IMG/VR virus record: IMGVR_UViG_3300003873_000007
Location: 1-64,000 of that record
Source: a virus
Strand: one strand, 5' to 3'
DNA: 64,000 bases
Part shown: piece by piece, positions 1 through 40,160 of the stretch
Layout of the letters: every line of letters starts with the position of its first letter
Position numbering within the stretch: position 1 is the first letter of the stretch
Translations under genes and position numbers: made by a program
The notes under the pieces: generated by a model
Database searches by the model: none
What the model was told of the DNA's origin: nothing
The model's input: the letters and a program-made list of their open reading frames with translations, nothing else

Positions 1-160
1 CAACTACTTTTTCAACAGGAGCTTCAACTTTTTCAACAGGAGCTTCAACTTTTTCAACAGGAGCTTCAACTTTTTCAACAGGAGCTTCAACTTTTTCAAC
101 TACTTCAACTGCTTTTTCAACAGGAGCTTCAACTTTTTCAACTGCTTTCTCAACAGGAGC
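1..160 (-). repeat. 21-bp coding tandem repeat encoding (EKVEAPV)n
   Basis: TTTTTCAACAGGAGCTTCAAC repeated with variants. Confidence 0.9.
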
Positions 161-199
161 TCCAACTATTTCTTCATCTTTCATTTTACGTTTTGCCAT
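1..199 (-). CDS. Partial low-complexity protein (MAKRKMKDEEIVGAPVEKAVEKVEAPVEK...), runs off the left edge
   Basis: ATG at 199-197 with AAAAGGAT RBS upstream; frame open to position 1; not in the ORF track because truncated. Confidence 0.75.
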   Translation of the reverse strand, partial: MAKRKMKDEEIVGAPVEKAVEKVEAPVEKAVEVVEKVEAPVEKVEAPVEKVEAPVEKVEAPVEKVV

Positions 200-239
200 T
201 GTATTATCCTTTTGTATTTAATTATTTGTTATTATGAGA

Positions 240-1388
240 TCAATATAAACTTTTAATTTCTTCTCTAAAATCAACGTTGGCTTTATCTAAGCCAACACCT
301 ACATGAGATTTCTTTAATGTTAGATTAACCAATGCTCCAGTTAATCCGGTACTTGCCATCAATCCAATATTATCACCTGATTTTAATTTCATTTTAGATA
401 TGTATAATTCATTATAACATTTATGACATATTCCGTCTTTACTTGTACAATATAAAGGACTTCTAATTTCTAATACTTTTCCAATAACATCGCTGTTATC
501 ATTTAGTTGTATTAAAATTCCAAGTTTTGATTTATAATATCGACCATTAAATGAATGAAGCATTTTCTTGTCTCGGATTTTTATTTTTAAATATTTTGTA
601 GTTTTACAGTCTAACTGGCTCGATAATTTAACTCTTTCCGCTACAGTTGACAATTTGCGTCCTAGATATCCAGGTTTAGCTGTTTCACTAGACTTAGCAT
701 ATAATGCTTGTATTGCTTGACTAGAGCCGTTAAAGAATTGAGTTTGTTCAATTCCTTCCACATGAGAGTTATCAATAACATCATTAATTTCCCCGAAGCT
801 ATTGATACTAAGACCAACACTTAATAAAAGGCTCTGAATATGACTAACATTACCTTTAGCTTCGGAATTCATTAAATCTACAACATGTATATCATTATCT
901 TCAAAATATTTTTTAACTTTCTCTGCAATCACAGTAATATTTTTTTGAAATGTTAAAGCATCATCTGTTGTTTTATCTGATTCTTTGTATATTTTAACTA
1001 ATTCATTTTTTTCTTTAATAAATTCTTTAGGAAGTACAAGAGCCTCTGGTTGAAATGAACTAGGAATAACCGTACTAAGGGTGAATCCGGCTTGCATAAG
1101 AAGATAATAATACCACATAAATTCAACACCTGTATCAGTCATTTCATCTAATTTATTAATTAATTTTGAAATACCTTTTTTGTCTAGTTTACTTTTAATT
1201 TTAATTTTTGGATGAAGAATATTTGTTTCCAAATTATCAATTATTACGTCTTGCAACAATTTATATGATAAATTTTTATCAGTATCAATCTTTAATTTTG
1301 TGTGAAAAGCATTTAATCTATTTTCCACCCATTTAGGAACTTGTTTCCCATCAGGATATACAAATTCTTGGTTAAATTTTAAGTTCAT
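240..1388 (-). CDS. Multisubunit RNA polymerase beta' subunit, C-terminal fragment (RNAP set 1)
   Basis: KKGISKLI; bridge helix ETAKPGYLGRKL; Zn site DCKT...RSPLYC...ICHKCY; trigger-loop region GDNIGLMASTGLTGALVNLTLKKSH. Confidence 0.9.
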   Translation of the reverse strand: MNLKFNQEFVYPDGKQVPKWVENRLNAFHTKLKIDTDKNLSYKLLQDVIIDNLETNILHPKIKIKSKLDKKGISKLINKLDEMTDTGVEFMWYYYLLMQAGFTLSTVIPSSFQPEALVLPKEFIKEKNELVKIYKESDKTTDDALTFQKNITVIAEKVKKYFEDNDIHVVDLMNSEAKGNVSHIQSLLLSVGLSINSFGEINDVIDNSHVEGIEQTQFFNGSSQAIQALYAKSSETAKPGYLGRKLSTVAERVKLSSQLDCKTTKYLKIKIRDKKMLHSFNGRYYKSKLGILIQLNDNSDVIGKVLEIRSPLYCTSKDGICHKCYNELYISKMKLKSGDNIGLMASTGLTGALVNLTLKKSHVGVGLDKANVDFREEIKSLY

Positions 1389-2653
1389 TTAGTTTCCTTT
1401 ATATTGTCAAAAATAGAATTTAAACTTTTTATTGTATAACTTTTATTAGTTTGGGTACTTACACTACCATTTTTATTACTAACAATAACTGGTCCTTGAG
1501 TTGCGGTGGTAAATGAAGTATTAAACGAATCCCCTCCAAGAGGCTTGTATAATAAAGAGTTCACAACAACATGAAATGAATTAGTTGGTATAATTACAGG
1601 AAAAAGAGAATGGTATGATCCTTTATCCCATGCGGGATCTCTTTTTAATAAAACTCTTAATTCTGGATGATACTCAAAAAGTTCTTTTAAAACCTGTACC
1701 CATAATTCTCTTTTTCCTGGATTAGCTTTTGTGTATGTATCAACATTTCTAAAAATATAATCAAAGTGTGTTCCAAATTTAGTACTTGAAAATTTATCAA
1801 CATTCAAAAGTTTTGCAAAATCTTGAGATAATATATTTTTATTTAAACTTCCTGCTATATATGCATCAAATACATTTAATAACACGTGCCATGGTAATCC
1901 AGCACAATTAAATGGCATATCTGGTCGAGCATTTGCTACTAAACGAGTATTGTTATCAATGCGCTTAGCAATTAAACTACCTCTAAACTGACCATCTTTT
2001 TTTTCTAAAAGATTTAAGAAATATTCATATATTACAATTACACTTTTTTGAATTTCTAATTCTTTATTACTATTTCTAAGAACTGCTTGCATTAATTTAT
2101 TTTCAAGCTGTCCAACACCAGTTAAATCTAATAATCTTTTATACATCATGGTAAGCTCATCTTCGATTGTTATGCCATGCTCTTGTTTATACATTCTAAA
2201 TTTAGGAGGAACAACTAAATATTTATCAATAAAAACATCCTCTCTTGGTGTTTTATTAAAATACTCAACAACTGTTTTATTTTTATCGTGTAAATACATA
2301 TTAAAATCAATTTTATTCCATGAATTAAATAACCATCCTAGTCCATTGTTACCATTAGGATCTTCAATTAATTCACCATTTACAATTTTTACCTTTTTTG
2401 TTCCAAGTACAACCTTTTTAAAAATTGTACTTACTTTATTCAAAGTATCTAAAATACTGGGGTGAATTATATTAATAGATAAATTAATATAACCAAATAA
2501 TTTGCCTATCTCACTACTAGTTACACCGAATATTATCTCACTGTATAATCCATCACTTGTTGCAGCTCCCGTTTTATCAAATGATTGTCTATTTGTAACT
2601 TCTAATATTTTATTATCTTTAATAAAATTATTTATATTTAAAACTTTTAACAT
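1385..2653 (-). CDS. RNAP beta' N-terminal fragment fused to a split-intein N-part (RNAP set 1)
   Basis: DGLYSEIIFG, FGYINL..HP, VVPPKFR, KDGQFRGSLIAKRID, LLKRDP; homology stops at LYKPLGGD (first Asp of DxDGD), followed by a 47-aa Ser-initiated tail. Confidence 0.9.
   Translation of the reverse strand: MLKVLNINNFIKDNKILEVTNRQSFDKTGAATSDGLYSEIIFGVTSSEIGKLFGYINLSINIIHPSILDTLNKVSTIFKKVVLGTKKVKIVNGELIEDPNGNNGLGWLFNSWNKIDFNMYLHDKNKTVVEYFNKTPREDVFIDKYLVVPPKFRMYKQEHGITIEDELTMMYKRLLDLTGVGQLENKLMQAVLRNSNKELEIQKSVIVIYEYFLNLLEKKDGQFRGSLIAKRIDNNTRLVANARPDMPFNCAGLPWHVLLNVFDAYIAGSLNKNILSQDFAKLLNVDKFSSTKFGTHFDYIFRNVDTYTKANPGKRELWVQVLKELFEYHPELRVLLKRDPAWDKGSYHSLFPVIIPTNSFHVVVNSLLYKPLGGDSFNTSFTTATQGPVIVSNKNGSVSTQTNKSYTIKSLNSIFDNIKETK
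1388..1528 (-). mobile_element. Putative split intein N-fragment (IntN, 47 aa, Ser1)
   Basis: Starts SFNTSF... exactly where the catalytic motif is interrupted; loosely resembles block A plus the following helix (IKSLNSIFD). Confidence 0.7.
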
Positions 2654-2679
2654 TATGTCCCCTTATATGTATTTGTTCA

Positions 2680-5600
2680 TTATTGTATGATCGTGCTGGG
2701 AGCAATATTTAAATTTAATCCTAAAGGATCAGTATTTGTCATAGGGACTAAACCAACATCTTGAAGAACTTCTGCCGTATGTTCGTCTTCAATATTATGA
2801 GAATTTACTAAACTTAACGTTTTATTTATATTTTCATCATTATAACATTCAAATAATTTACCTAAATTATTCGACATATGTATTAAATTTTTTAATTTTG
2901 CTTTATTTATATATATTAGAACCGCTGTTCCATTATTTTTAATTTGTATACCATTCTTTTCTAAAGCATTCATTTTGATAAATTGTTGAATACTAATGAA
3001 ACTTTTAAATACTAAACTTTTTATATATTTATTAATAAGTGTTAAATTTATAGTACCTGATTGGTCAAATTCAGTTCTTATATGATCTATCATTTCAAGA
3101 TTAGCAGTAATTACCATATTATCATCAATGTTTTCATTCATTTGTAATTTGATTTCATCCCACTCATTATTTAACATCATAATTAATAAATTACCAAAGG
3201 GATGCATCATAAGAATCTGTTTGTTAAATTGATTATCTTTTAGATTAGCATTAGACCATTCCGTCTTCGGAGCAGTCTTTACAAGAATTGCCCAAAATTC
3301 AGAAACCTCTTCTTTTAAAGATACAATAAAATCATCAATTGTCTCAAATCCATATTGTTTTACAGAATCTAATAATGTTACATCACATCTAAAATAAGTA
3401 ATTCTTCGATCATTACTAGGATGAACTATTGGAGAATCTCCATTTGTCATCATCAATAAGTTAAAATGTCTTTTTATTTTAACACTATCAACACCCTTCT
3501 TTTCCATTTGAATATATTTATTTCCAGTTAATAGTTTTAAATTGTCTACCTCATGACTCTTACTAAAATTTCCTTCATCTAATACAATTAAAGATGATTT
3601 TTCCATAAAAGCATTAAAATTTCCACTAATCTTTCCAGATGTTACGACATTAACATATTCATGATTCAAATAATGTTCTAACACGTGTTCAATAAACACT
3701 CCTTTTCCTGTCCCTTGTACTGTGTTGATTACTGGTAGAATACTCATAGTATTAAAATTTGCCATATTAATTAACCAATTGATAAAATATTCAAGCGAAC
3801 CGCGTTGTGTCATTTGACATAAATAAAAATACATAACAGGCAATCGTTCTTCAATTAAAGTCAAAGCTCCTCTGATATCCATAACATCAATCATTTTAGC
3901 CATTTCGTGAATTTCTAAATATTGTTTTCCAGGAATCCATAAATTAATAAATTTTATATTATCTCGTTCATATGTATAAGACATCCCTGGTGTAAATTCT
4001 TCAAAAGCATTTATTAAAACCTTTTCTATAAATAAATCATGAAACATATTTCGAAGTTCAGCATCCGCATGTATCACTCCTAATTGATTTAATAAAATAT
4101 GTTCAGCAAGCATTCTAGTCCCATCAAACACATAAGCTTGACCTTGTTCGAATGCTCTAATTACACATGATCGATTCTTATTTGCTAATCTATAATATAC
4201 AAAATCTGTTGTATTTATTTTATCAATAAGATCTAATACTGTGTTTTGTACTTGATCTTTATTAAATTTTTTCTTAACTTTATCAGTTATTGTTATATTA
4301 TAAGTTTCTGCTATATCATATGTTGCTTGTTCGCGAGTCATATTTTTTAATGCCATTGTTAAAGTAATAACATTATAAACTTTTCCTCCCTCGTGAAAAT
4401 CCTTAGCATAAGCTACTTTTTTATCCGGATTTACCCATATAAAAAAACTACCATTCTCATCTGGATGAAAGGGACAAACATAAGCTTTTCTTGTACTTGT
4501 ACTAGCAGTTTTATTAAATGTTAACATTGTACTCATAAACTCAGCTTGTTGTTCACTTGTTATACTATTTAATATATCATAATCAGATGCGTTTCCAAAT
4601 ACTTCTTTATCTCCTTCACGAAATACTTCATTCGTTTGAGAAGAAATCATTGAGCTGTGAATTATAGCATCTGGATTCATAGCTGGATTAATCACAAGAT
4701 CAGGACAAGCGTATGGGTCATAAATAGAAAGGTTTTGTGCTTTGTGACATTCTGTATCCATTTCTGTTTTAATTTTATAATTTTCTTTAAATTGATTAAT
4801 TTGTCGAAAAACTATATTCTCTATATCCTCTGCAACAGTATTTGTGAAATATGTAGATTTTAAAACATCTAACCATTCAACGTATGCGGCATCAAGTAAT
4901 TCAGAATTATCAAAATCAACAATTTCTTCAGCAAAAGAACCACCATATGCTTCTTTAGGATTTACTGTACCACCTATTCGTTGTGTATGTGCAATATCTG
5001 TACTTGACGCATCAAATTCTAAAGCAATTTTTCTCATAGTATTTAATGAATCTGCTCCATATACATTAAATTTTGGTATAGTTTTAATTGCAATATTTAA
5101 ATATTTAAATATTTTATCTGCTTCCGGTTTAATTATAGGTCGCGAGAAATCAATGATAAATTGAATTCCTCCTCCTGTTGCATAAGCTTTTTTTGGGTGG
5201 AGCTCTAAATCCATTTTTAAATCAACAAAAACTTTATTAATTTTATTTAAAGCTAAAGCTGCAGTAATTCTTCTAGAACTTTCCGTAAAACTATTAAAAT
5301 GAAATCTTCCACTTTTCAAAGTTTTATCTACATGAGAATCAATATCTAACACAAAAGTTCTGATATTTTTAATAGCACTTGCTGTTGGAGCAACTGCTTT
5401 ATCATCTTCTACTATATATTTAAAAGTAGCACTGGACATTGACCAGCCTACTAATTTTTTCCATTCAATTTTACGAACTCCTGCGTATTTAACTTCCATT
5501 AATTTTATTAGTTCTAATGGACTTCTGACTTGTTCAGTTAAAGTTATCTGATGAGTAGCTAATTTACCATCTTTCTCGTACGGTAAAACAGCTGTTAATC

Positions 5601-5745
5601 TACAAGTCTCATCTTCATTTAATTCTGCTCGACCATGACTAGCCATCCAATAATCTGTAATATCATTAACTCTAATTCTTTTCTTCCAGTTGAAAGAATC
5701 CTCATCAACCGGCGCAGTTTTATATATTTTATCTTTTGTATCCAT
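2680..5745 (-). CDS. Primase-helicase (AEP-type primase, Zn-finger-like domain, SF3/NrS-1-like P-loop helicase)
   Basis: FVLDIDSH, YATGGGIQF, RIGGTVNPK; CPFHPDENGSF; Walker A QGTGKG; Walker B LIVLDE; MTN, NDRR. Confidence 0.85.
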   Translation of the reverse strand: MDTKDKIYKTAPVDEDSFNWKKRIRVNDITDYWMASHGRAELNEDETCRLTAVLPYEKDGKLATHQITLTEQVRSPLELIKLMEVKYAGVRKIEWKKLVGWSMSSATFKYIVEDDKAVAPTASAIKNIRTFVLDIDSHVDKTLKSGRFHFNSFTESSRRITAALALNKINKVFVDLKMDLELHPKKAYATGGGIQFIIDFSRPIIKPEADKIFKYLNIAIKTIPKFNVYGADSLNTMRKIALEFDASSTDIAHTQRIGGTVNPKEAYGGSFAEEIVDFDNSELLDAAYVEWLDVLKSTYFTNTVAEDIENIVFRQINQFKENYKIKTEMDTECHKAQNLSIYDPYACPDLVINPAMNPDAIIHSSMISSQTNEVFREGDKEVFGNASDYDILNSITSEQQAEFMSTMLTFNKTASTSTRKAYVCPFHPDENGSFFIWVNPDKKVAYAKDFHEGGKVYNVITLTMALKNMTREQATYDIAETYNITITDKVKKKFNKDQVQNTVLDLIDKINTTDFVYYRLANKNRSCVIRAFEQGQAYVFDGTRMLAEHILLNQLGVIHADAELRNMFHDLFIEKVLINAFEEFTPGMSYTYERDNIKFINLWIPGKQYLEIHEMAKMIDVMDIRGALTLIEERLPVMYFYLCQMTQRGSLEYFINWLINMANFNTMSILPVINTVQGTGKGVFIEHVLEHYLNHEYVNVVTSGKISGNFNAFMEKSSLIVLDEGNFSKSHEVDNLKLLTGNKYIQMEKKGVDSVKIKRHFNLLMMTNGDSPIVHPSNDRRITYFRCDVTLLDSVKQYGFETIDDFIVSLKEEVSEFWAILVKTAPKTEWSNANLKDNQFNKQILMMHPFGNLLIMMLNNEWDEIKLQMNENIDDNMVITANLEMIDHIRTEFDQSGTINLTLINKYIKSLVFKSFISIQQFIKMNALEKNGIQIKNNGTAVLIYINKAKLKNLIHMSNNLGKLFECYNDENINKTLSLVNSHNIEDEHTAEVLQDVGLVPMTNTDPLGLNLNIAPSTIIQ

Positions 5746-5780
5746 TATTGTTTCCTTAATTATTGTTATTTGTCTATATG

Positions 5781-6917
5781 TTACTTTGTAGCGTTGTATA
5801 ACCCAAGGATTGCATCATCAGCAATCCATTGGTTAATATTTCCTTCATTTAAATCTTTATAATATTCTTTATGATCAGGGCTAAATTCTTCTGAATCGAC
5901 TAAGGCTTTTTTCGTAAATATCCCACTTGTAGCTAAAATATCTCCATCTGAATTTTTTAAAAATGGTGTGAAATTCATAGCATAATTTGTTGCATCTAAT
6001 CGTTCACTCGTTAAGTCATAAACTCTATCATCTGAATCTAATTCTTTTAATTCTATAGAATTAAAAGGAACCAATAATATTCTTCCAGAATTTATATTAC
6101 TAAGTATTGAAGATGTTTCATTAAAATCATCTAACTTCTCTGCGATTTGATATCTTTTAAATAATTTAACCTGTTTATCGGCAATAAGATATGCTTCATT
6201 TTTATAAAAGATACTAGGTAGTATAGAAGAAAATACATCAGATAATTGAATATATACTTTTTTTGTATTATTTTTAGAATTTCTAATAGAATAACTTGCG
6301 CCTAAATAATTTAAGATAGTGGTAAAAGTATATAGATTAACATTAGGCAATATGTATAAACCATGAGTGTTACATTCCGTATGATATCCTTTGAGTATGC
6401 CTAAAACAAAATTTGGATTTGAATTAATTAAAATATTTTTATTAAGACTCAACCCGTTTTTTGTATCAACAAACACACTTAAAAAACCAGTCCTGATATC
6501 TAACATTTCGGGATTAGCTAAATATCTTCCGATACGTTCACCAAATTCAAAGGTTAATTGAATGGTTTCTATTTTATCATTAAATTTAAAATCTAATTGA
6601 AAATTTGTATCCATATTTAAACAAGGAATTGGATATAAAATAAAATCAAAATCTTGAATCTCGCTTATATTTTTTTCTTTTATTTTAAGACCTTTATCAA
6701 TTATCATTATTGAATTTCGTTCCCCAATGATAAAATTAGTCTTGTTATTAAAATATCCAGGACAATGCACAGTACCATTACCAAATGTATTTTTAGCTAA
6801 CATTTTATACTTTGTGTCTGCATTATGTTCTTGTATAGATAAAGTCTGTTGATGAACTACATCTGTATCAGTTAAGCCTAACACATCCATCTTATGGTTT
6901 TTACTATCTTTTCTCAT
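5781..6917 (-). CDS. Split-intein C-part (with degenerate LAGLIDADG) fused to a 56-aa RNAP beta' segment carrying SDGD of the catalytic motif
   Basis: Block F VYDLTS, block G FLKN, +1 Ser; extein SDGDILA...DDAILGLYNAT matches beta' FDGDQMAV...QDVVLGLYYMT. Confidence 0.88.
   Translation of the reverse strand: MRKDSKNHKMDVLGLTDTDVVHQQTLSIQEHNADTKYKMLAKNTFGNGTVHCPGYFNNKTNFIIGERNSIMIIDKGLKIKEKNISEIQDFDFILYPIPCLNMDTNFQLDFKFNDKIETIQLTFEFGERIGRYLANPEMLDIRTGFLSVFVDTKNGLSLNKNILINSNPNFVLGILKGYHTECNTHGLYILPNVNLYTFTTILNYLGASYSIRNSKNNTKKVYIQLSDVFSSILPSIFYKNEAYLIADKQVKLFKRYQIAEKLDDFNETSSILSNINSGRILLVPFNSIELKELDSDDRVYDLTSERLDATNYAMNFTPFLKNSDGDILATSGIFTKKALVDSEEFSPDHKEYYKDLNEGNINQWIADDAILGLYNATK
5952..6917 (-). 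mobile_element. Putative split intein C-fragment (IntC, 322 aa)
   Basis: Block-B-like IIGERNSIMIIDKG...ISEIQDFDFILYP; LAGLIDADG-like FGERIGRYLAN and FVLGILKGY; block H ILNYLGASYSIR; terminal Asn codon 5954-5952. Confidence 0.8.
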
Positions 6918-7293
6918 TATATACCTTTGTATTTTATTTCTAATTTGTTAATATTACGTATTATTTCTATAATAAAAATTTCTATCGTACTCGATATACT
7001 TCTTATCTTTTTGGATAATAAAATGATCTTTTTGGATAGAAAATAAAATGATCTTTTTGGATAGAAATACATACCATAGAAATATTTGTATTTGATTTCT
7101 ATGGTAACTTTTATCTTTATCGCTAAAGATCATTTTATATTTTATTAAAATATTTAATTGAAATAAATATTTTAAGTATTTTAAGTATTTTAAGTATTTT
7201 AAGTACTTAAATATTATCCAGATAGATAATATTTAAGTACTATAGAAATCATTAATATATAAAATATACCTGAAAAGAGAGAAGAGAGAATAG
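6918..7293. promoter_or_regulatory. Divergent intergenic control region, possible origin
   Basis: Strand switch; ATCTTTTTGGATA x3 (7005, 7026, 7051); near-perfect palindrome 7113-7130; (TTTTAAGTA)n; 17-bp inverted repeat 7202-7241; CATAGAAAT cores on both strands. Confidence 0.6.
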
Positions 7294-7944
7294 ATGTTTA
7301 AGATAGATAAGCCAACTAAAATAGAATTAGAAGAAGAATTTTATTATATGCAAAACACAATCGACGATATAAAAAATGTAAATATAAAAGATTTTAATTA
7401 TATTATATTTGAAGAAGATTTAGACAATATGTATAAGACAGAGTTTTTAAAATTTTTTAATAAAAATATAAAAGCATTAATTGAAGATTTAAATATTTAT
7501 TTAAGTATTGATTTAGATGAATTATTTGAAGCCCCATATAGAATAAAATTAAGCTTTGTTAAAAATATAGTGCGATTCTTTATGAATACGTTACCATATA
7601 TTTACATGAAAGAGTTTTTGAGTTCAAATGAAGTTGAAGGATTACATGATGCTCTAGATTTATTTGATGATAATCTTCAGACAAATATAATTAATCAAAT
7701 AAAAAAGAGCCAAGAACAATACAGTTCATTTAATACTATGATGTCTGATATTGAAGATACTATTACAAATGAAAAAAAGAAAAATAAATTTAATAATATG
7801 TTAACGCTTCTTGATGCAAGTATGACAAATAAGTCTAAATTACTAGATTATTATAAAAGTATTATTCAAAATTCAGGACATGATGGTATTAAATCATTAT
7901 TTAAGTTATATTTAAAAAATGATTTAGACAATATTATTGTATAG
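7294..7944 (+). CDS. Hypothetical protein
   Basis: 216-aa ORF, followed by a hairpin. Confidence 0.7.
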   Translation: MFKIDKPTKIELEEEFYYMQNTIDDIKNVNIKDFNYIIFEEDLDNMYKTEFLKFFNKNIKALIEDLNIYLSIDLDELFEAPYRIKLSFVKNIVRFFMNTLPYIYMKEFLSSNEVEGLHDALDLFDDNLQTNIINQIKKSQEQYSSFNTMMSDIEDTITNEKKKNKFNNMLTLLDASMTNKSKLLDYYKSIIQNSGHDGIKSLFKLYLKNDLDNIIV

Positions 7945-10769: not shown

Positions 10770-11489
10770 ATGAGTACACCAGAAGAGTTTGAAAATGATT
10801 TTACAGATGAGGCAGATGATAATATATTTCCAGAAAATGATGTATTTGATCCACAAGAAGAAGATCAAATAAATAGTTCATTAGGTGAATTATATGATTT
10901 TGATTTACAAGAATTGATTAAATATTCAAATAGAACCCATTATTTAAAATGGGTTCTACACAATGATATTAGTGTTAGATACCATGAAGTATTTCAAGAT
11001 AAGCCTGAGCTAGTAGGAAAATATATTTTAAAGGACCATGAAACAAATACTTTTCAAGTTTTAAGTAATAAAATGGCAAGAGCCATTATTGATGGTGGGA
11101 ACACAAAAGATTATACAGAAATTTATGGATATCTTCAAAACAAAGAATATCATAAATTAATAAAACATAATAATCAATGGTATCATAGAAACGAATCAGA
11201 TTTAGATAAATTTCATGAAAAAAGATTACAGCAAAAAAATTGGAAACAAGAAGAAGAAAAATTTATTAGACAAATAGACTTAAAAACGTTTACTTTGTAT
11301 TATGAAAGTAGCTATTTTGTCTTAACTGCTTCTTTTAAAGGCCAGTCTAAATCGATATGGGAGTATTATTTATATGATGAAGCAATTAATAAATTAAAAG
11401 AACAAGTAAATATTAAAAAAGATTTAGTGTTTGCTCCAACCGAAGAGATGCTAATCGAAGCATATAACACACACACAAAGGAAAAATAA
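10770..11489 (+). CDS. Hypothetical protein with acidic N-terminus
   Basis: 239-aa coupled ORF. Confidence 0.7.
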   Translation: MSTPEEFENDFTDEADDNIFPENDVFDPQEEDQINSSLGELYDFDLQELIKYSNRTHYLKWVLHNDISVRYHEVFQDKPELVGKYILKDHETNTFQVLSNKMARAIIDGGNTKDYTEIYGYLQNKEYHKLIKHNNQWYHRNESDLDKFHEKRLQQKNWKQEEEKFIRQIDLKTFTLYYESSYFVLTASFKGQSKSIWEYYLYDEAINKLKEQVNIKKDLVFAPTEEMLIEAYNTHTKEK

Positions 11490-12055
11490 TGGATTATAAA
11501 TTAAAATTTGGTTGCGATGAAGATGTATTTTCATTCTTAGGGAATAAAATTATGCATGGTAAAGTAACCTCTGTAAAAATTACACACGATGAAGAAATCA
11601 CAATAGAAGCTTTTATAGAATCAATTGTTAATAATCAAGCATTTGGATGGACTCCAATGATTGATTTAAAGCAAACAAAAGAAGATGCTATTCAAGTATA
11701 TATAAATAAAATAAATAAAGTTGAATCATCAGAATCCGAATTAGATTATGTCAAAGATTCATTTAAAGATGCCGAAAATGCCGAAAATATAATTCATACA
11801 AAATATAAAATCGGTGATAAAGTATTTGAATTATCATCAAATGGTCAAATATTTTCTTATGAAATAGAGGAAATTGTAATTTTGCAGGATATGGATAATT
11901 ATTCAAATATATCAGTTACAATAACATATGGCATCAAAAATAATTTAGTAATGAAATTGGAAAATGTATTATTTAAATCATTTGATGATGCAAAAGAGTG
12001 TTTTATTCAAAAATTACGTGATACACCTGTAAATGAAAAAATTAAAATAGGATAA
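11489..12055 (+). CDS. Hypothetical protein with an internally duplicated small beta-domain
   Basis: KFGCDEDVF / KYKIGDKVF halves. Confidence 0.65.
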   Translation: MDYKLKFGCDEDVFSFLGNKIMHGKVTSVKITHDEEITIEAFIESIVNNQAFGWTPMIDLKQTKEDAIQVYINKINKVESSESELDYVKDSFKDAENAENIIHTKYKIGDKVFELSSNGQIFSYEIEEIVILQDMDNYSNISVTITYGIKNNLVMKLENVLFKSFDDAKECFIQKLRDTPVNEKIKIG

Positions 12056-12059
12056 CATA

Positions 12060-13445
12060 ATGTTTGATTTAAAAACAGAAATCAGTAGAATCGAAGCAAA
12101 TGTAAAAGAGACATCTAATGCATCTGCGATTAACTACGTAATGAGAAATTATTTACATGAATTAAAATCTATAGATTCTTTTCAAGAAGATAATAAACCA
12201 GCAAAAGAGATAGATATATATAGTGATATAATGGAAACTATTTCCGGAATGAGATTTAAAGATGATCGATATGCAGCTGCTGTAAAGTGGTGTAATCTAC
12301 AATCCATTAAACCAAAAGATGCAACTAAATTATTTGATTTAGTAAATAAAGGTGAAAAACGAGCTAGTACAGCTAGGGAAGAAATAGATAAAGGTTGGAG
12401 ATTACCAACTGAAGATGAAATGATTACTTTTCTTAAACATAGAAAAGCTTCAAAATCATATTTTAACAGAGTAGTTTGGCTAAAAAATTACCATATAATG
12501 TCTTTACGAACACGTAAAGTGAATAATGATACAAGTAATTATTTAGGTATCGGAACTAGTTATTTTTTAATACTTGTTCGCAATACACAAAAAGGATTAC
12601 AATTTAAACCTTTAGATGGATTATATAATAAAAATGAAATTCGTTTAAAAATCAAAGAGTTTAATAATCCAGTAAAACGAAAATACACAGCAAATGATTG
12701 TGGAACAGATAATACTTTATCAAAAGTATTAAACACAAAAGAAGAACTATTAGAATATATTGGAAGATATTATATAACACCTAAAGGATTAATTAGAATA
12801 ACTAACGATGAATCACTTATTGGAAAAATCTTAAATATTCGTAGTCCCTTATTTTGTGAGAGTTCTGGAACTATATGTAAGGTGTGTAACGGCAAATCGT
12901 TACCAAAATATAATTATAAACCATCACCAGGAAGAAGACGAAGCACACCAATTCCGAGTAAAACAAAATATACGACAAATATTAAATATGTAATGTTTCA
13001 TTATGCATTTAGTAAAACTCAATCAGATGCTCCTTTAGATGCTAGACATTTTTCAATTAGAGCATGTGTTGTAAAATCTAAAATGAATCCAGTTGGAATT
13101 AAGTTAAAGGATTTTGAATTAAATGATATAGGATTAATAAATGGTAGATTTTATATTGACGATGAAATTAAAAGATTGGGGCTGGATATTCCTCTATATT
13201 TTAATGAAATTGATTACAATTTTATTTCTAAGTATGGTGCTCGTAATTGGGTTAAGTATAGTAATTTTAAATCAAATTTCGATTATACTTCAGCAATGAA
13301 TGATGTAATAACTAGATATTTTGATGTACCAGAAAAATACACAATTGGTCAGTCGTTTGCAAAACGACTAATAATAGATAGATCCCCGGAAATTGAAGCA
13401 AAAGACATTGATGCTAAATTATCAGGAATATCACAATTTAAATAA
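12060..13445 (+). CDS. Mosaic protein with a WRLPT motif and an RNAP beta' Zn-binding module
   Basis: GWRLPTEDEM; DCGT...GRYY...IGKILNIRSPLFCESSGTICKVC. Confidence 0.7.
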   Translation: MFDLKTEISRIEANVKETSNASAINYVMRNYLHELKSIDSFQEDNKPAKEIDIYSDIMETISGMRFKDDRYAAAVKWCNLQSIKPKDATKLFDLVNKGEKRASTAREEIDKGWRLPTEDEMITFLKHRKASKSYFNRVVWLKNYHIMSLRTRKVNNDTSNYLGIGTSYFLILVRNTQKGLQFKPLDGLYNKNEIRLKIKEFNNPVKRKYTANDCGTDNTLSKVLNTKEELLEYIGRYYITPKGLIRITNDESLIGKILNIRSPLFCESSGTICKVCNGKSLPKYNYKPSPGRRRSTPIPSKTKYTTNIKYVMFHYAFSKTQSDAPLDARHFSIRACVVKSKMNPVGIKLKDFELNDIGLINGRFYIDDEIKRLGLDIPLYFNEIDYNFISKYGARNWVKYSNFKSNFDYTSAMNDVITRYFDVPEKYTIGQSFAKRLIIDRSPEIEAKDIDAKLSGISQFK

Positions 13446-15277: not shown

Positions 15278-16311
15278 TGAAATATGTGAAGCCTAGAAAA
15301 TTAAAAAAAAGAAATAGAAAATATATAAAAAGTATTTTAAATATGATTCCATTTAAAATTAAAGCACAGTTATTTGGTTCTGGTTATTTTATATTTTCTT
15401 TTCGTGAGAGCTCTGTTTTACATTTTAAACTAAAAGAATTTCCTGATTGGAAATTTGGAATATGGTTAAATGATTATGATTATAGACAGTATGAAATATT
15501 TGGTCAATGTATTTCAATGATTGATAAATTTAAACCAAGTAGAAGTCCTCTATGTGAGGATAACATACAATCATTTAATGATGAACTTTATAAAATATAT
15601 GTTAAAGATGATTCATGGCTAGAGTATCTACGTGATGCAGCGGAAGAGACAGAGATGTTGAATAAATACGATATTCAAAACAGAGTATATTATAAAGCAT
15701 TTTTTGATTTTATTACTAATTGGAATAAAAAACAAGAAGAAAAAGAAGATACGGATTTTAAAAGATTGTATTTAAAATTGCAAGATAATGGAAGCAATTG
15801 TAGTCCAAGATATAATATCAATGTAAAGTCGTTTGAAGAATTTCAAACAAAAGAATTTGAATTTGAATATTTTGCAATGGAATTTGTATTATATGTAAAA
15901 ATTTGTGAATATATAGATGCTATATATGATCCAAATAAATTAACTGGTTTTTATGCAAACAATTTTATTTTTAATGGAACGATTCGAGAAGAAATTCTAG
16001 GTGAACAAGAATGGACTCAACGATCAATTGATTATAAATGGGACGAACAAGACTACAGTAAATTTTTGGAAAATAAATACAATTATTATAAACCATATGA
16101 AATTAGTGATAGAAAATTAAAAATTCAATTATATTCATGGTTTGTTACAAATTATTGTGATTCACAAACACAACATTGTTTTATTGATACATATGAAAAA
16201 CTTTACTCAGGAAAATATAATGTTCAATATGCAAAAGAAGTGATTAATGAAATGTTTAGAAACCCCGAAAGAGTTCAATTAAAATTAAATAAATTAAAGG
16301 AAGGAATGTAA
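15277..16311 (+). CDS. Hypothetical protein (start likely 15277 by TAATG coupling)
   Basis: Long ORF. Confidence 0.7.
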   Translation: MKYVKPRKLKKRNRKYIKSILNMIPFKIKAQLFGSGYFIFSFRESSVLHFKLKEFPDWKFGIWLNDYDYRQYEIFGQCISMIDKFKPSRSPLCEDNIQSFNDELYKIYVKDDSWLEYLRDAAEETEMLNKYDIQNRVYYKAFFDFITNWNKKQEEKEDTDFKRLYLKLQDNGSNCSPRYNINVKSFEEFQTKEFEFEYFAMEFVLYVKICEYIDAIYDPNKLTGFYANNFIFNGTIREEILGEQEWTQRSIDYKWDEQDYSKFLENKYNYYKPYEISDRKLKIQLYSWFVTNYCDSQTQHCFIDTYEKLYSGKYNVQYAKEVINEMFRNPERVQLKLNKLKEGM

Positions 16312-16487
16312 TGACATATGTATACAAACAATTAGCAGAGTTGACAAATAGAAATGTTGATGATTTTAAGATTGGTTATGATAACTGGAAAAAAGAAACA
16401 GGATTAACTGATGAAGAAGCAAATAGAGAATTATTTAGTTTACCTGAAATGGCAGCAATCGCATTGCTTGAAATTCATATGAAGTAA
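16311..16487 (+). CDS. Small hypothetical protein (58 aa, MTYVYKQLAEL...)
   Basis: Read manually; fills the gap; TAATG coupling, AAGGA RBS. Confidence 0.6.
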   Translation: MTYVYKQLAELTNRNVDDFKIGYDNWKKETGLTDEEANRELFSLPEMAAIALLEIHMK

Positions 16488-16490
16488 CTT

Positions 16491-16685
16491 ATGATTGATA
16501 ATAATATTAAAATTATAAACTTATATCTCATTGTTAGATATATGGGCGTAGAAAATTGGTTTTTAACTAGAGAAGAAGCTTATGATAATCTTCAATGGTA
16601 TAATAACGAAAATGAAGATATGATAATTGAAATTCAGTCATTTGAAGGCTCACATGAACATGTAGCAGCCTTAGAAAATACATAA
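16491..16685 (+). CDS. Hypothetical protein
   Basis: 64-aa ORF in operon. Confidence 0.6.
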   Translation: MIDNNIKIINLYLIVRYMGVENWFLTREEAYDNLQWYNNENEDMIIEIQSFEGSHEHVAALENT

Positions 16686-16695
16686 AGGTAATATA

Positions 16696-16911
16696 ATGAG
16701 TTACGCATTATATGATTTAAGAGAAGAGTTTGAGAAGAATACCAATGTTGCAATGGATGAGAACTTAACCATGAATAAATTAAGAAATACTGATGTTGAA
16801 GTAATTTCTGAAGATGGTTTAATTTATCAAGGATTAGATGGTATTAAAAGCATTAAGATAGAAAATACTTTAACTAGTATTAAACCAAACCGAAAATTTA
16901 AGGTAAGATAA
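16696..16911 (+). CDS. Hypothetical protein
   Basis: 71 aa, AAGGT RBS. Confidence 0.65.
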   Translation: MSYALYDLREEFEKNTNVAMDENLTMNKLRNTDVEVISEDGLIYQGLDGIKSIKIENTLTSIKPNRKFKVR

Positions 16912-17381
16912 TGAAATTAGAATTAAAAAAAGAAAATGTTCCAAATATTGGATTAAATGATATAAAAGCAGGTGAAACTTTTAGATTTTATAAAAATAAA
17001 AGTTTAGAAAGAAGTGTTCAAGATAAAGAAATTTATATGAAACTTAATAGTGATGATTTTAAATGTGTGCAGTTATCAGGAGATTGTGCAATTGTAAAGC
17101 GTTTTGGTCCATTAGTTGGTCATATGGTTAAAACTAAAATTAAAACACATCATATAGAAAAAGAAAACATTATTATGTTACAAGAGGTAGAAATAGGAGA
17201 AGTTGTATCTATTTATATAGGAGATAGTGTATTTATGGATAATGTATTTATGATTGCTAATAATCCAATAGAAAAAAATCTAACATCATTGGTTGATTTG
17301 GAAACAGGTGACATTCACAAAATGTCAAATGAAGTTTTATGTTGTTGTCATACAACTTCTTTATTAGTAGAGGAGGTTTAA
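16911..17381 (+). CDS. Hypothetical protein with an internal duplication
   Basis: LNDIKAGETF / LQEVEIGEVV halves. Confidence 0.65.
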   Translation: MKLELKKENVPNIGLNDIKAGETFRFYKNKSLERSVQDKEIYMKLNSDDFKCVQLSGDCAIVKRFGPLVGHMVKTKIKTHHIEKENIIMLQEVEIGEVVSIYIGDSVFMDNVFMIANNPIEKNLTSLVDLETGDIHKMSNEVLCCCHTTSLLVEEV

Positions 17382-17651
17382 TTGAAAAAATCATTAGATA
17401 TTAAATTAGAAAAAGAGATTTTAAAAATTGATAATACAGCAAATATTATAGTTGATGATGCAATTCAAAAAATATGTAACAACCAAAAACTATTTGAATT
17501 ATATAATGCAGCAGATACAGATGATGATTTAATGGTTCCTGTTTTAAATTTTAAAAATATTAAAATAGCAAAACGATTATTTGAAAAAGATCATAAGCTT
17601 ATTAATTCAGCTTTAAAAAATATGCTAAAAGAGGTAAAAAATGAACGGTGA
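17382..17651 (+). CDS. Hypothetical protein (TTG start)
   Basis: GAGG RBS, 89 aa. Confidence 0.6.
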   Translation: MKKSLDIKLEKEILKIDNTANIIVDDAIQKICNNQKLFELYNAADTDDDLMVPVLNFKNIKIAKRLFEKDHKLINSALKNMLKEVKNER

Positions 17652-18069
17652 TATATTAAATAAAATTCTACTCAATAGATTAGAAGTAAAAGATAAGAAA
17701 ACAGGTGACAAACGATATCATATTAGAGGAGTGCAGCGATTAAACTCTACTATGATAAGTGTAGTTTTATACAATAGAATAGGTAAAAATAAAACAAAAG
17801 TTATGGAGTTACAAGACTTTATTAAAAATTTTGATGAAGCAGCTCCTCTTACACAAAAAGATGAATTTAACAAACTTCTTAAAATACCAGATATATTATC
17901 AAGAAATAGTCAAATTGTTCATTTTTTAAAAAAATATTGTGATGATGTAGTTCATGAAGGAAATCCTGATGCAGCAGATAGATATAAACATACAACATAT
18001 ATTTTTAAAGATGAGTCATCCGTCACATTTAAAGATTCAAACATCCAATGGAAATATGAAGCAGCTTGA
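17641..18069 (+). CDS. Hypothetical protein
   Basis: 142 aa, GAGGT RBS. Confidence 0.7.
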   Translation: MNGDILNKILLNRLEVKDKKTGDKRYHIRGVQRLNSTMISVVLYNRIGKNKTKVMELQDFIKNFDEAAPLTQKDEFNKLLKIPDILSRNSQIVHFLKKYCDDVVHEGNPDAADRYKHTTYIFKDESSVTFKDSNIQWKYEAA

Positions 18070-18817: not shown

Positions 18818-19108
18818 ATGGATTTACAAAAATATCAAAATAAAATTAAAAATCGAACAGGTAGAATAAATGGTGAAGAAGTTCAGAAGTATTTAAATGA
18901 ACATAAATTTTCAGCTGAAATATCTTTTATGGAAGGATATATAGGTTTGGAGAATATGACATTTGATCATATCTACATCAATAATAAATTACAAGGAGAT
19001 ACATTTAATGATAAAGCTTGGATAAAAAATCGACCATTCGGAGACAATAAATTAAGTACGTCTAAATTTTTAGATTATGTAGAACCATATTTAATAAAGG
19101 AAAAATAA
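18818..19108 (+). CDS. Hypothetical protein
   Basis: 96 aa in operon. Confidence 0.65.
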   Translation: MDLQKYQNKIKNRTGRINGEEVQKYLNEHKFSAEISFMEGYIGLENMTFDHIYINNKLQGDTFNDKAWIKNRPFGDNKLSTSKFLDYVEPYLIKEK

Positions 19109-19416
19109 TGTTTAAAGAGGAAAAAAAAGAAATAAATTCATGGATAAGATATACACTAGGCTGGGTTATTATAATAATTGCAATATTTAGTGTATTAAAT
19201 TATATAGGCATTATTGGAAGCACTGTGGTAGAAAGAAAAGTTTTTGAGAATTCATATCAAAAAGTATCAGCTGATAATAAAGCAGAAAGAATATATTCTG
19301 CACAATTAGCAGAAGTTAATTCAATGTTAGATGAAACGGATATAGATTCAGATACACGTCAAGATTTAAGAAGACAAGCAGCTCTACTTAGAGTTCAATT
19401 AAATTCAATTCGATAA
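19108..19416 (+). CDS. Membrane-anchored coiled-coil protein
   Basis: N-terminal TM, VERKVFENSYQ. Confidence 0.7.
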   Translation: MFKEEKKEINSWIRYTLGWVIIIIAIFSVLNYIGIIGSTVVERKVFENSYQKVSADNKAERIYSAQLAEVNSMLDETDIDSDTRQDLRRQAALLRVQLNSIR

Positions 19417-19421
19417 AAACG

Positions 19422-19439: not shown

Positions 19440-19453
19440 AAAAAAGGGATAAA

Positions 19454-20032: not shown

Positions 20033-20041
20033 AGGAAAAAA

Positions 20042-37094: not shown

Positions 37095-40000
37095 ATGGCA
37101 ATAGAATTATCATTCTCGTTATTTGAGAATGCAAATAAATTGAGAAGTGTTACAAACCCATCTTCTTTAAAAGCTGGAAAATTTAAGTTTACAGAAGATG
37201 GATTATATTCCGAGTCTATATTTGGACCATTAAAAAATAATTCATGTTCATGTGGAGCCATTTTCTCAAAAGAAAATTTAGGAGTTCGATGTGAAACATG
37301 TGATGTATTATGTGATACAAATATGCTTCGTAGTTCCACTTTTGGAAGAATTGATTTGCCTAAAAATATATATATTATATTACCAATTTTTCAAAACTTG
37401 TTAGGTAATATTTTCGGTCAGACTGCAATTAAAAGCATATTATCATATCAAAAATATGAAGATAATAAACAGAAGCCATACTATTATTCGATTCAGCAAC
37501 AGAAATTAGTTAAAATTAATAATTTTAAAGATAATGAAAAACGCATATTGAAAAAAGTTTATGATATAACAACACTACATAAATTATACAGAAGTATGTT
37601 AAGAAATAAAGTTTTTAAAGAAAAGATTTTAGAACATTTATCAGATGATAGAATAGCTGATTATGTGTTTGTTAATTTTATTCTAGTTATCCCGCCTGAT
37701 TCTAGACCATTAATTCAATTAAATAAACAATATCAAGCGCATGCGATTACAGCTGCATATACTGAGATTTTAAAAAATATCAAAAATAGTTTTATTGATA
37801 AATTGTTTCAAACAGATTCTGAAGGATTTGGACAAACAGTTTATAAGTATCAGTCAAGTATTAATAAATTATATGCTGAAATAACTGATAAAAATTTTCA
37901 AAGAAAAAAAAGTATAGTTCGAGAATCATTAGCTGGAAAAACAGTAGAGACTTCTCAGCGAGCCACTATTGTACCGGAACCTGTTCTTGCTCCAGGAAGC
38001 ATAGCATTACATGAAGAAACTGTAAAAAAGATTTTTCAATTGGAACTTTTAAATTTTGTTAATTCTGAATATGAAAAACAAGAAAAAGATTCTAGTATTA
38101 CGAACTTTGTACAAACTGTTCATAAACAAACAGCAAGTAATGGAGATATAAATATATCAGATGAGCTGTTTAAAAAATTCTTAGATGAAAAGGGTTCAGA
38201 TCTAAGAATGCTATTAGAACGACCGCCTGTGCTATGGAGATATAATATTTCTGGGGCTTTACTAGGTCTAGTATATGCTGATAATAAACACGTTGGAATT
38301 AAACAGGATCGTGTAACTGGTATGAATTCTTTAGTTGCACAAATGTATAATAGTGATTATGATGGAGATAATCTATCAGTTTATGCATTAACTAGTGAAC
38401 AAGCAAAAAAAGATTTTTGGAACACCTATATGGAGAATTCAGTAGAGTTCGAACATCATAGAGGATTAATTGTAAATCCAGAACATGAAGCAATTTATGC
38501 TGCTTATATATTAAGTGTAAATGCTAACAAACGAACAATTAGAAAATATGATATTGAACAGTATGATTCATATGATGATTTTGAAGTTCAGATTGATACA
38601 ATTAATCGTACCCCAGGCAGAATAGTTTCTATTGATGGAGACAAATTGCCGTATACAATCGCAGTTATAAATAAAGCATTGGGTCTAAATAAAAAGATAT
38701 ATGATGGAAGTTATATATTAAATAAAAAAAATTTACAAAAGCTATTAAAAGTTTTAAGAGAAAATGTTGATGATAAAGAATTTTATACATATGTTCATAA
38801 TTTTGATAAATTTTTATTAGAATGTTCAACTATAATTCAAGATTGTAATCCAACATTTGATTTAGATGACTTTGCAATTGGTAGTGATGAGATTGATAAT
38901 TATAAAAAGACCTTGGTAAATGAACCTTATATAGCATTTCATCAAAACGATATTTTATTTCAAGAAATTGTTACACCTAAAGTAAAAGAAAGAGATACTA
39001 ATATTTTAGCAAAAGTTTTTGATTCTGGAGCAAGAATCAAATCAGTTCAGTTATTAAAAGCTGTTTCAAATAATGGTATCCCTACGAATATTTACGGTAA
39101 AGCTTTTCAAGAAAATATTAAAAATTCATTGCTTGATGGCTTAACTAAACGTGAATTTTTTATGGGAGGAGATAGTGCTAGATTAGCATTAGCCCAACGA
39201 CAGGAAGCTATTCCAAAAGGAGGAGAACTTCAGCGTAAATTTTATTATGCGACAGGATTTTTAAAATTAGACACCTTAGACGATTGTGGATCTGATAGAG
39301 GTTTTGAGTTTAAGATACTTGATAAACAACATTTAGAATCATTGTATTCAAGGTATTATGTAACAGGTGAAGAAATTGATACAACAGATTTAAGTCTTAT
39401 TGGCACATATGTTAATTTAAGAAGTCCAATTTATTGTGAATCTAAGAATTATAAAGTATGTAAAAAATGTTTTGGTCATAAACAACCGCAAAGTGTTGCA
39501 TTAGGCGCAAGTATCGGCGCGTATATATCAGAAAGTATTATCCAAAGTGTTTTACGAACACATCACTTTTCAGGTGCTTTTATTACACAAATAAATGAAA
39601 CAATGACTAAACTTATTAAAAAATTAAGATTTGTTTCACCAAATAAAATTTATTACAATGATGAAAATGACGTTTTAAAATTGCAAGAATTACTTAATTC
39701 TTCAAAATATTATGATGATCCGAATCATGTTGAATTAATAAAAAAGGAAGATTACTATGAAATAATAATAAACGAGTTACCATTTAATGATGATAGTGTT
39801 AAACAATTAAATAATATTGTTAGCATAATTGACAGGAATCGTGATAATGAAAACATGTTATCTCTCAATGAAATGTATAATTTTTTATTAGATAACGTTG
39901 TGTTACCTAATGGAATTTTAAGTATTTTTATTGAATTAGTTATAGGAATATTATATTATGATGAAAATAAAGTAATGATACGCTATAGTAAATTACCAAT

Positions 40001-40160
40001 AGATCATCAAATTGCATTAAAAACTGTTATCGATAGATTAGATCCGAAATTATCAATCTTTCACAATTTCAGCAATAAAGCAATTAATAGAATATACACT
40101 ACAAAAATTAAAGAGAATCTGGATCATATGTATTCAGATTTAATCTCTTGTTACCATTAA
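37095..40160 (+). CDS. Multisubunit RNAP beta' subunit, unsplit (RNAP set 2)
   Basis: DGLYSESIFGP, CSCG..CETC, VIPPDSRP, LLERPP, catalytic YNSDYDGD, IPKGGELQRK, DCGS..RSPIYC..CKKCFG, VLRTHH. Confidence 0.95.
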   Translation: MAIELSFSLFENANKLRSVTNPSSLKAGKFKFTEDGLYSESIFGPLKNNSCSCGAIFSKENLGVRCETCDVLCDTNMLRSSTFGRIDLPKNIYIILPIFQNLLGNIFGQTAIKSILSYQKYEDNKQKPYYYSIQQQKLVKINNFKDNEKRILKKVYDITTLHKLYRSMLRNKVFKEKILEHLSDDRIADYVFVNFILVIPPDSRPLIQLNKQYQAHAITAAYTEILKNIKNSFIDKLFQTDSEGFGQTVYKYQSSINKLYAEITDKNFQRKKSIVRESLAGKTVETSQRATIVPEPVLAPGSIALHEETVKKIFQLELLNFVNSEYEKQEKDSSITNFVQTVHKQTASNGDINISDELFKKFLDEKGSDLRMLLERPPVLWRYNISGALLGLVYADNKHVGIKQDRVTGMNSLVAQMYNSDYDGDNLSVYALTSEQAKKDFWNTYMENSVEFEHHRGLIVNPEHEAIYAAYILSVNANKRTIRKYDIEQYDSYDDFEVQIDTINRTPGRIVSIDGDKLPYTIAVINKALGLNKKIYDGSYILNKKNLQKLLKVLRENVDDKEFYTYVHNFDKFLLECSTIIQDCNPTFDLDDFAIGSDEIDNYKKTLVNEPYIAFHQNDILFQEIVTPKVKERDTNILAKVFDSGARIKSVQLLKAVSNNGIPTNIYGKAFQENIKNSLLDGLTKREFFMGGDSARLALAQRQEAIPKGGELQRKFYYATGFLKLDTLDDCGSDRGFEFKILDKQHLESLYSRYYVTGEEIDTTDLSLIGTYVNLRSPIYCESKNYKVCKKCFGHKQPQSVALGASIGAYISESIIQSVLRTHHFSGAFITQINETMTKLIKKLRFVSPNKIYYNDENDVLKLQELLNSSKYYDDPNHVELIKKEDYYEIIINELPFNDDSVKQLNNIVSIIDRNRDNENMLSLNEMYNFLLDNVVLPNGILSIFIELVIGILYYDENKVMIRYSKLPIDHQIALKTVIDRLDPKLSIFHNFSNKAINRIYTTKIKENLDHMYSDLISCYH

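Follow-up and report, generated by a model that had tools for sequence, protein, structure and literature searches.

The window analysed here comprises positions 1-64,000 of a 92,280-bp viral contig from IMG/VR (IMGVR_UViG_3300003873_000007), and it encodes pieces of a multisubunit RNA polymerase of the jumbo-phage type whose nearest named relatives, at ~30% identity, belong to the AR9/PBS1 group. Completeness of the contig is ~33% (CheckV) and its guanine plus cytosine content ~26%. Near the start of the window four open reading frames (ORFs) follow one another in the same direction on the minus strand, at 6917..5781, 5745..2680, 2653..1385 and 1388..240, with gaps of 35 nucleotides (nt) and 26 nt followed by a 4-nt ATGA overlap. 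The first and the third each carry a portion of the N-terminal part of a virion-type beta' subunit (beta'N) joined to what appears to be a fragment of an intein. It is likely, judging from sequence comparisons and structure models, that a fixed, atypically split, cysteine-less intein trans-splices this beta'N; the ligation itself is a step that we infer.

The ORF at 2653..1385 encodes 422 amino acids (aa). Its polymerase part, the N-extein (residues 1-375, 1529..2653 on the minus strand; phrog_2986, E-value 6e-33), reads ...VNSLLYKPLGGD and ends PLGGD with the first catalytic Asp, the last codon ending at nt 1529. The next codon (1528-1526) specifies Ser376 and opens a 47-aa tail (residues 376-422, 1388..1528, minus strand), the putative N-terminal intein fragment (IntN), which begins with Ser1 and would contribute the first strands and a helix of a Hint fold. 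The DNA on this side is CCT CTT GGA GGG GAT · TCG TTT AAT, or PLGGD·SFN, where the raised dot marks the splice junction. The partner gene at 6917..5781 (minus strand) encodes 378 aa. Residues 1-322 (5952..6917) are read as the C-terminal intein fragment (IntC), with Hint strands from about intein position 36, a nested LAGLIDADG-like domain, blocks F and G and a final K321-N322; the sequence runs ...VYDLTSE...FLKN and the N322 codon lies at 5954-5952. After N322 the frame continues as the C-extein (residues 323-378, 56 aa, nt 5951-5784), SDGDILATSGIF...LGLYNATK, whose SDGD provides the second and third catalytic Asp and whose end is the C-terminal end of beta'N. On this side the junction DNA is AAA AAT · TCA GAT GGA GAT, or KN·SDGD. 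Ligation in silico joins 375 and 56 residues into a 431-aa protein with LGGD-SDGD at the join, which supports the view that the complete DxDGD triad of the virion-type beta'N is present only in the ligated product. The ORF at 240..1388 (minus strand, 382 aa) holds the next beta' region (Pfam Rpb1_5; phrog_3015 and phrog_2962). An earlier note on this DNA, made by reading its letters, had described the GGD end and the Ser-initiated tail, the 431-aa product and the continuation of beta' in 240..1388. All of this was borne out, and every coordinate and residue number in it proved correct on the ORFs and the DNA.

Among named sequences the 422-aa ORF matches AR9 g145 best; this gene carries the annotation of N-terminus of the virion RNA polymerase beta' and is joined from three exons over two group I introns with homing endonucleases. 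Read directly from the reading frames, AR9 exon 2 ends ...LKALGGDYD and exon 3 begins GDTVSLRGVFSKEANEE...; exon 3 (GDTVSLRGVF...IYSLTRE) is 53 aa long and aligns with the 56-aa C-extein, with an end equivalent to ...LYNATK. The short AR9 exons had to be read by frame and aligned directly, as tblastn of the in-silico product against AR9 missed both. Because the exteins match AR9 across the junction and share the same end, the two pieces in the window correspond to exactly one AR9-type beta'N subunit, and by this likeness the split polymerase is most likely the virion enzyme.

The break in the window's beta'N lies two codons from an AR9 intron site (GGDYD·GD in AR9), and this proximity is what could be said for joining at the level of nucleic acid, either by a split group I or II intron that trans-splices RNA or by a DNA rearrangement that fuses the genes. 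We consider such joining very improbable. A permissive Rfam scan of 1..7400 detected no group I or II intron RNA, its one match being to CRISPR-DR44 and below threshold; the junctions at nt 1528 and nt 5951 are free of direct and inverted repeats; and the intervening sequence is an open, conserved and well-folding protein in frame with the exon. The CRISPR-DR44 match itself (6202-6229, minus strand, inside the IntC coding sequence) scores 31 bits against a gathering score of 35, with an E-value of 0.043, and is most likely due to chance.

A six-frame motif scan of the 92-kb record, itself ~33% complete, found a single other DxDGD, the intact NSDYDGD of an ORF at 37095..40160 on the plus strand. 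The earlier note had named a complete DxDGD-bearing partner elsewhere in the genome as something that would count against trans-splicing. A second DxDGD does exist, but it belongs to a complete, full-length paralogous beta' (1021 aa, N and C parts fused) of the other, non-virion-type polymerase, with best named matches to the 'non-viral RNA polymerase beta-prime subunit' of Staphylococcus phages MarsHill and Madawaska, and it was rejected as a partner for the split subunit. In phiKZ and AR9 the beta' is split in both polymerases (PMC7598289), and the fused non-virion beta' of the window differs from them in this respect.

An AlphaFold2 model of the 378-aa protein, built on a 42-sequence alignment, reached a predicted local distance difference test score (pLDDT) of 84.4 and a predicted template modelling score (pTM) of 0.81, with disorder confined to the 56-aa extein tail. 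All 13 Foldseek matches with an E-value of 0.001 or less are endonuclease-bearing inteins, the best being PhoVMA (7qst, E-value 8.9e-11), followed by TliVMA, PI-PfuI and PI-SceI. VIA-align placed the model on PI-SceI over 256 residues with a Z-score of 13.8 and a root-mean-square deviation of 3.8 Å; Z-scores were 12-14 to PI-SceI, TliVMA and PI-PfuI and 8-10 to many mini-inteins. Since model residue 322 corresponds to the last intein residue (PI-SceI 454, Mxe GyrA 198, Npu DnaE 137) and model residue 1 to residue ~19-41 of solved inteins, the 378-aa ORF is an intein without its first strands. The ORF had been taken earlier for an intein body; it is an intein and does end FLKN·SDGD, but it is not the whole body, being a C-fragment that starts at about residue 36 of contiguous inteins. 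The split site is near the N-terminus, before block B and away from the endonuclease-insertion site, which makes the split atypical. Kinship of IntC with inteins is seen by fold and not by sequence: a profile search of the IntC family against PDB sequences returned only chance methyltransferase matches (E-value ~1). PHROGs has no family for the 378-aa ORF, and tblastn of this ORF against 50,697 phage records gave no match.

The complex of IntC(1-335) with beta'N(366-422) was modelled in three runs, along with three controls. The interface score ipSAE was 0.90 in the three runs against 0.00 for the best of the three controls; the calibration mark was passed by 58 of 80 solved complexes and by 2 of 110 mismatched pairs. 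Contact agreement among the runs was at least 88%, and partner pLDDT at least 79. In the modelled interface, residues 373-385, which include the splice junction, lie against H31, 67-70, 297-301, 320-321 and 323 of the IntC protein, and IntN 390-408 lies against IntC 107-112 and 159-165 with the lowest predicted error. The 47-aa tail is thereby predicted to supply the missing first strands and to complete one Hint domain. Structures of split-intein complexes have already been solved, so the high docking score may partly mirror likeness to known structures. Both the intein fold of the C-fragment and the co-folding of the two fragments had been put forward in the earlier note as checks on its central claim, a naturally split intein within the DxDGD loop, and this claim is now supported by fold, docking, conservation and alleles at the same site, all the computational checks proposed there having turned out in its favour.

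Conservation bears on both halves of the split. A search for the beta'N family collected 97 sequences, 95 of them with the GGD motif, and in all 95 a Ser follows GGD directly and opens a tail of 36-80 aa with a shared pattern; G373, G374, D375 and S376 are invariant in the family. Homologues of the 378-aa ORF that stand alone number 86; they are 286-606 aa long, share as little as 28% identity and come from contigs of up to 286 kb, and KN·SDGD is present in 83 of 85. No fused form of the IntC family was found among proteins of 663-2000 aa, which is weak evidence. The IntC family alignment of 42 sequences, at 31% mean column identity, has only 13 invariant columns, among them H31 (codon 6827-6825), S69 (6713-6711), D301 (6017-6015), N322, S323, D324, G325 and D326, all on the minus strand and each 42/42; K321 is kept in 41 of the 42. 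Every intein-bearing allele has Ser as the middle residue of DxDGD. Among 91 intein-free relatives this residue is F in 50, Y in 27, S in 5, C in 4 and otherwise H, I, N or V, and because the position varies freely there, the invariant Ser fits use as the +1 nucleophile.

Gene order is kept as well. The series of IntC gene, primase, beta'N-IntN gene and next beta' piece recurs on five further contigs (L003, L004, L008, L009 and L010), the primase holds the same position on six (L003, L004, L006, L008, L009 and L010), and the two-gene split layout is also found in G001. In a 272.6-kb genome that is 97% complete both genes are on the same strand, ~14 kb apart, and spacing among relatives ranges from 3 to 14 kb. 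Misassembly was rejected as a source of the layout, as the order recurs on independent contigs from other metagenomes. Taken with the GGD-Ser tail in 95/95 and KN·SDGD in 83/85, this recurrence places the split layout beyond chance. A gene that is split and permuted, with a dead endonuclease, could also be a decayed remnant, that is, a virion polymerase gene broken by rearrangement and non-functional. Such decay is hardly credible given that both ORFs are intact and conserved in ~90 sequence clusters with synteny kept, that the catalytic residues are invariant in the polymerase and the intein parts, and that frequent frameshifts, stops or relaxed substitution were not seen in the relatives.

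Alleles at the same site suggest where the split form came from. Intein-free beta'N proteins of ~430 aa with a contiguous GGDSDGD, which the earlier note had proposed to look for, were found in the full-library beta'N search (P0195, P0200, P0214 and P0226). The Pfam Rpb1 domain 2 match reaches profile position 163 in intein-free alleles and stops at ~130-135 in intein-bearing ones. Contiguous inteins of 176-205 aa are inserted at exactly GGD·[C/T/S]...N·SDGD in P0241, P0198, P0203 and P0216, and P0206 carries a contiguous 488-aa intein at the same site with a Pfam LAGLIDADG_3 domain; P0214 (intein-free) and P0241 (intein-bearing) are sister sequences. Common to the contiguous inteins are a WxVH His, Ser in place of the block-B His, a block F of the form YD[LF]T and a penultimate residue other than His. 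Aligned to them by hhalign (E-value 4.2e-5, probability 42%), IntC residue 1 falls at position 36, H31 on the His and S69 on the Ser, and IntN corresponds to positions 1-35. In a tree of N-exteins (quick IQ-TREE maximum likelihood, 65 rows, with support from the Shimodaira-Hasegawa-like approximate likelihood-ratio test only), the 17 split representatives cluster together (support 94), with one intein-free sequence at the base of their group; the contiguous inteins occur here and there among the intein-free alleles of a different clade. With split alleles grouped together and contiguous ones scattered, the tree agrees with a mobile intein having occupied this site, undergone a single split and become fixed thereafter. 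P0199 (432 aa, contiguous DSDGD) sits on a long branch nested within the split clade and may represent either intein loss or a tree artefact.

Other relatives may be interrupted at this loop. P0183 (492 aa) ends at ...KPLGGD without a tail, perhaps because the contig stops there or because of an interruption of another sort. In two distant beta'N relatives, P0258 (764 aa) and P0320 (604 aa), the loop sequence is ...TLGAD·CS... with a further 169-371 residues after it, and from their sequences both may hold a different intein family at the same site.

Several features expected of an intein are present, namely the Hint fold, a nucleophile as first residue (S376), the block-F Asp (D301) and a C-terminal Asn with Ser at +1, and the best reading is that of a cysteine-less intein with Ser1 and Ser+1 only. 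Several observations weigh against it. The block-B position reads GERNS, with Ser69 in place of His, and the Thr-x-x-His that is usual in inteins, though no strict requirement, is not present; T310 and K321 stand where the block-F and penultimate His would be. The Pfam Intein_splicing profile reaches only a sub-threshold E-value of 0.014 on the 378-aa ORF and matches 6 of the 42 family members, at best with 5e-6. Ser also stands at +1 in some intein-free alleles, and its conservation could come in part from the host protein. The mapping of S69 and H31 depends on the hhalign probability of 42% and on model contacts, and the residue before H31 is Lys in just 11/42, where Pasch et al. have Arg or Lys. 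Block-F and penultimate His vary among known active inteins.

A partial precedent exists. The atypically split Ser1/Ser+1 intein PolB16 can do without its block-B His (Pasch et al. 2023, PMC10189870), and in it an overlooked 'motif NX' His near Ser1, conserved only in Ser1 inteins, is critical (PMC10189870). H31 precedes the block-B position by 38 residues, compared with 41 for the NX His in PolB16. Given its invariance, this spacing, its alignment to the WxVH His and its modelled contact with the junction, we infer that H31 is the NX histidine.

The missing block-B, block-F and penultimate His could be expected of a domesticated Hint domain, in which the fragments merely associate, or cleave the exteins, and the magnesium loop is formed by two non-covalent chains. 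That the element is fixed and immobile throughout the clade with a dead endonuclease is in keeping with this possibility, and the model predicts docking of the fragments, not chemistry. We nevertheless find it distinctly unlikely. Ser1, H31, D301, N322 and Ser+1 are invariant at 28-35% identity, which is hard to explain without catalysis, and the position that is always Ser here is the one that varies freely in intein-free alleles. Contiguous inteins that are equally His-poor sit in the same loop of an intact beta'N and presumably must excise for function. From the architecture of RNA polymerase, a body of ~370 aa at the buried catalytic loop would also be expected to block the active centre.

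Under the trans-splicing interpretation, two precursors would be made. The first consists of beta'N 1-375, ending GGD, followed by the 47-aa IntN that starts with Ser; the second, from the gene upstream and beyond the primase, consists of the 322-aa IntC ending Lys-Asn, then SDGD and the last 52 aa of beta'N. IntN and IntC would associate into one Hint domain, as the model predicts, and class-1 splicing with oxygen nucleophiles only would follow. Its steps would be an N-O acyl shift at Ser376, transesterification to Ser323, cyclisation of Asn322 and a final O-N shift, releasing the intein and leaving beta'N as a protein of 431 aa with an uninterrupted GGDSDGD in its magnesium loop. The element would be the old, immobile descendant of a mobile intein whose contiguous form persists at the same site in a sister phage group; genome rearrangement would have split it, and vertical inheritance would then have carried it throughout the clade.

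Model residues 119-235 (a degenerate LAGLIDADG homing-endonuclease domain, ~6213..6563 on the minus strand) align to I-DmoI (VIA Z-score 8.0). In the 42 sequences the conserved Asp or Glu is absent at the ends of both LAGLIDADG helices (131-132 and 178-179), so judged by sequence the endonuclease of IntC is probably inactive. The contiguous relative P0206 retains canonical LAGLIDADG motifs. The endonuclease-like core of IntC is strongly conserved (N194, Y196, L202-S210). Because IntN 390-408 makes its lowest-error contacts in the model with IntC 107-112 and 159-165, this domain could serve as a docking platform. A wider proposal is that an ancient, clade-wide split intein splices without the three canonical His, using Ser1, the NX-type His31, Ser69, Asp301, Lys321 and Asn322, that the dead endonuclease domain has been co-opted as the platform on which IntN docks, and that maturation of the virion RNA polymerase depends on, and may be paced by, slow oxyester trans-splicing. 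As a whole we offer this proposal as speculative and rather doubtful.

Between the two intein-bearing genes lies a primase-helicase (2680..5745, minus strand; 1021 aa, with a CHC2 zinc ribbon and a DUF5906/D5-like region) that is not part of the polymerase. The 240..1388 ORF is translationally coupled to beta'N via the ATGA overlap on the beta'N stop. No convincing terminator was found in the window between the IntC gene and the beta'N-IntN gene, and because they belong to a tight cluster on one strand, the two genes are probably co-transcribed. A terminator-like hairpin at 1531-1543 (minus strand), CCTCTTGGAGGGG with a T-rich run and a 5-bp stem, overlaps the PLGGD codons and is probably a by-product of them.

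The earlier note had further suggested that intermolecular splicing acts as a timing or assembly checkpoint, in other words that trans-splicing is conditional and delays the virion polymerase until a set stage such as assembly or packaging. If the trans-splicing interpretation is right, the polymerase cannot be active before splicing; those Ser1 split inteins that have been characterised splice slowly and in a manner that varies with pH, with a half-life of 20-150 min for PolB16 (PMC10189870); and the varied spacing of the two genes among relatives would also suit a checkpoint. The tight same-strand cluster, by contrast, points to co-expression, and no redox-active Cys pair, ligand-binding domain or other sensor feature was seen. 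The suggestion is thus not supported, and we regard a regulatory checkpoint as quite improbable.

Among known systems, the trans-splicing element proposed here can be set beside the PolB16 OarG intein, found in a PolB-type DNA polymerase from a sheep-gut metagenome (PMC10189870), with which it shares the atypical N-terminal split, independence of cysteine and the use of Ser1 and Ser+1. PolB16 has its critical NX His near Ser1, and the window's invariant H31 lies at a comparable distance before block B. The two differ in size, IntN being 47 aa in the window and 15 aa in PolB16, and IntC 322 aa, including the nested LAGLIDADG-like domain, compared with 168 aa. Where PolB16 has a dispensable block-B His the window intein has Ser, and it also has neither the block-F nor the penultimate His. 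The host is an RNA polymerase beta' instead of a DNA polymerase, with the genes swapped in order around a primase, and the chemistry, established biochemically for PolB16, is predicted for the window element. The AceL-TerL and GOS-TerL inteins of phage terminases (PMC11766414) resemble it in their phage or metagenome origin and short IntN (25 and 37 aa), and GOS-TerL likewise uses Ser1; the engineered relative 'Cat' (PDB 6dsl) aligns to the window model from Cat residue 28. Unlike the window intein, the TerL inteins are mini-inteins without an endonuclease domain, have Cys at +1 (AceL-TerL also Cys1) and reside in a terminase, away from any polymerase active site.

The contiguous inteins of P0241, P0198, P0203, P0216 and P0206 agree with the window intein in insertion point, family traits and the Asn·Ser boundary. 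They differ in acting in cis, in mostly starting with Cys or Thr and in occurring sporadically beside intein-free sisters, as mobile inteins do, whereas the split form is fixed in its clade. The group I introns of AR9 g145 are in the same host gene and at nearly the same site, with intron 2 in the DxDGD codons two codons downstream, and like the window intein they are selfish elements inserted where the gene is most conserved; group I and II introns occur in the virion beta'N gene of other phages too (PMC12350094). AR9-type introns are removed from RNA, while the intervening sequence of the window is translated and, in the model, Hint-folded. The Ssp and Npu DnaE inteins also yield an essential polymerase subunit from two genes by protein trans-splicing, are fixed in their lineage and have the Hint fold (Z-scores 8-9). 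In contrast to the window intein, DnaE is split at the canonical endonuclease-insertion site into an IntN of ~100-120 aa and an IntC of ~36 aa, has Cys1, Cys+1, the canonical His and no endonuclease remnant, and lies outside the catalytic metal loop.

Around these genes, relatives carry homing-endonuclease-like ORFs inserted at varying points, in L003 at 15551-17889 and 19065-20618, in L005 at 11107-11817 and in L009 at 11168-12061. In L003 these ORFs encode 482, 302 and 518 aa, and the examples in L005 and L009 encode 237-298 aa; they are absent from the window. Some end ...YRKIYDSGN[LM]VF..., like the AR9 Hef-like endonuclease. The beta'N operon is a hotspot for mobile endonucleases. Downstream, window positions 1-237 include an ORF at 199..2 (minus strand) that runs off the window, starts MAKRKMKDEE and contains eight tandem 21-nt units encoding a repetitive VEKVEAP-type protein; a similar repeat protein (MAKKKVEAVVEEVAEV...) is found in L003 at 20629-20946, in the equivalent relative place. 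Upstream, positions 6918-7293 form a divergent intergenic region between the minus-strand operon and plus-strand genes and are rich in repeats, with two tandem 25-nt copies (7014-7063), three copies of TATTTTAAG (7177-7203) and a 42-nt imperfect palindrome (7177-7266). The repeats may act as promoters or regulatory elements in either direction.

Split inteins have been described in DNA polymerases, helicases, terminases and ribonucleotide reductases. In our search of full-text literature no intein of any kind, contiguous or split, was reported for a jumbo-phage RNA polymerase or for the NADFDGD motif, and we came across no paper placing a split intein in a multisubunit RNA polymerase or between catalytic aspartates. 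Reviews of jumbo-phage RNA polymerases cover only gene splits and introns (PMC7598289, PMC7824862). Group I introns, contiguous inteins and a split intein have convergently invaded the same codon neighbourhood. If splicing takes place as proposed, the ~90 sequence clusters would constitute a natural family of cysteine-free, atypically split inteins, with an IntN of 36-80 aa, for use in protein engineering, and would offer a natural test of how a junction is activated without the block-B, block-F and penultimate His. It would also matter for how phage polymerases with fragmented subunits are assembled, since a clade of jumbo phages would then build the active site of a polymerase that is most likely packaged and injected by means of post-translational ligation.

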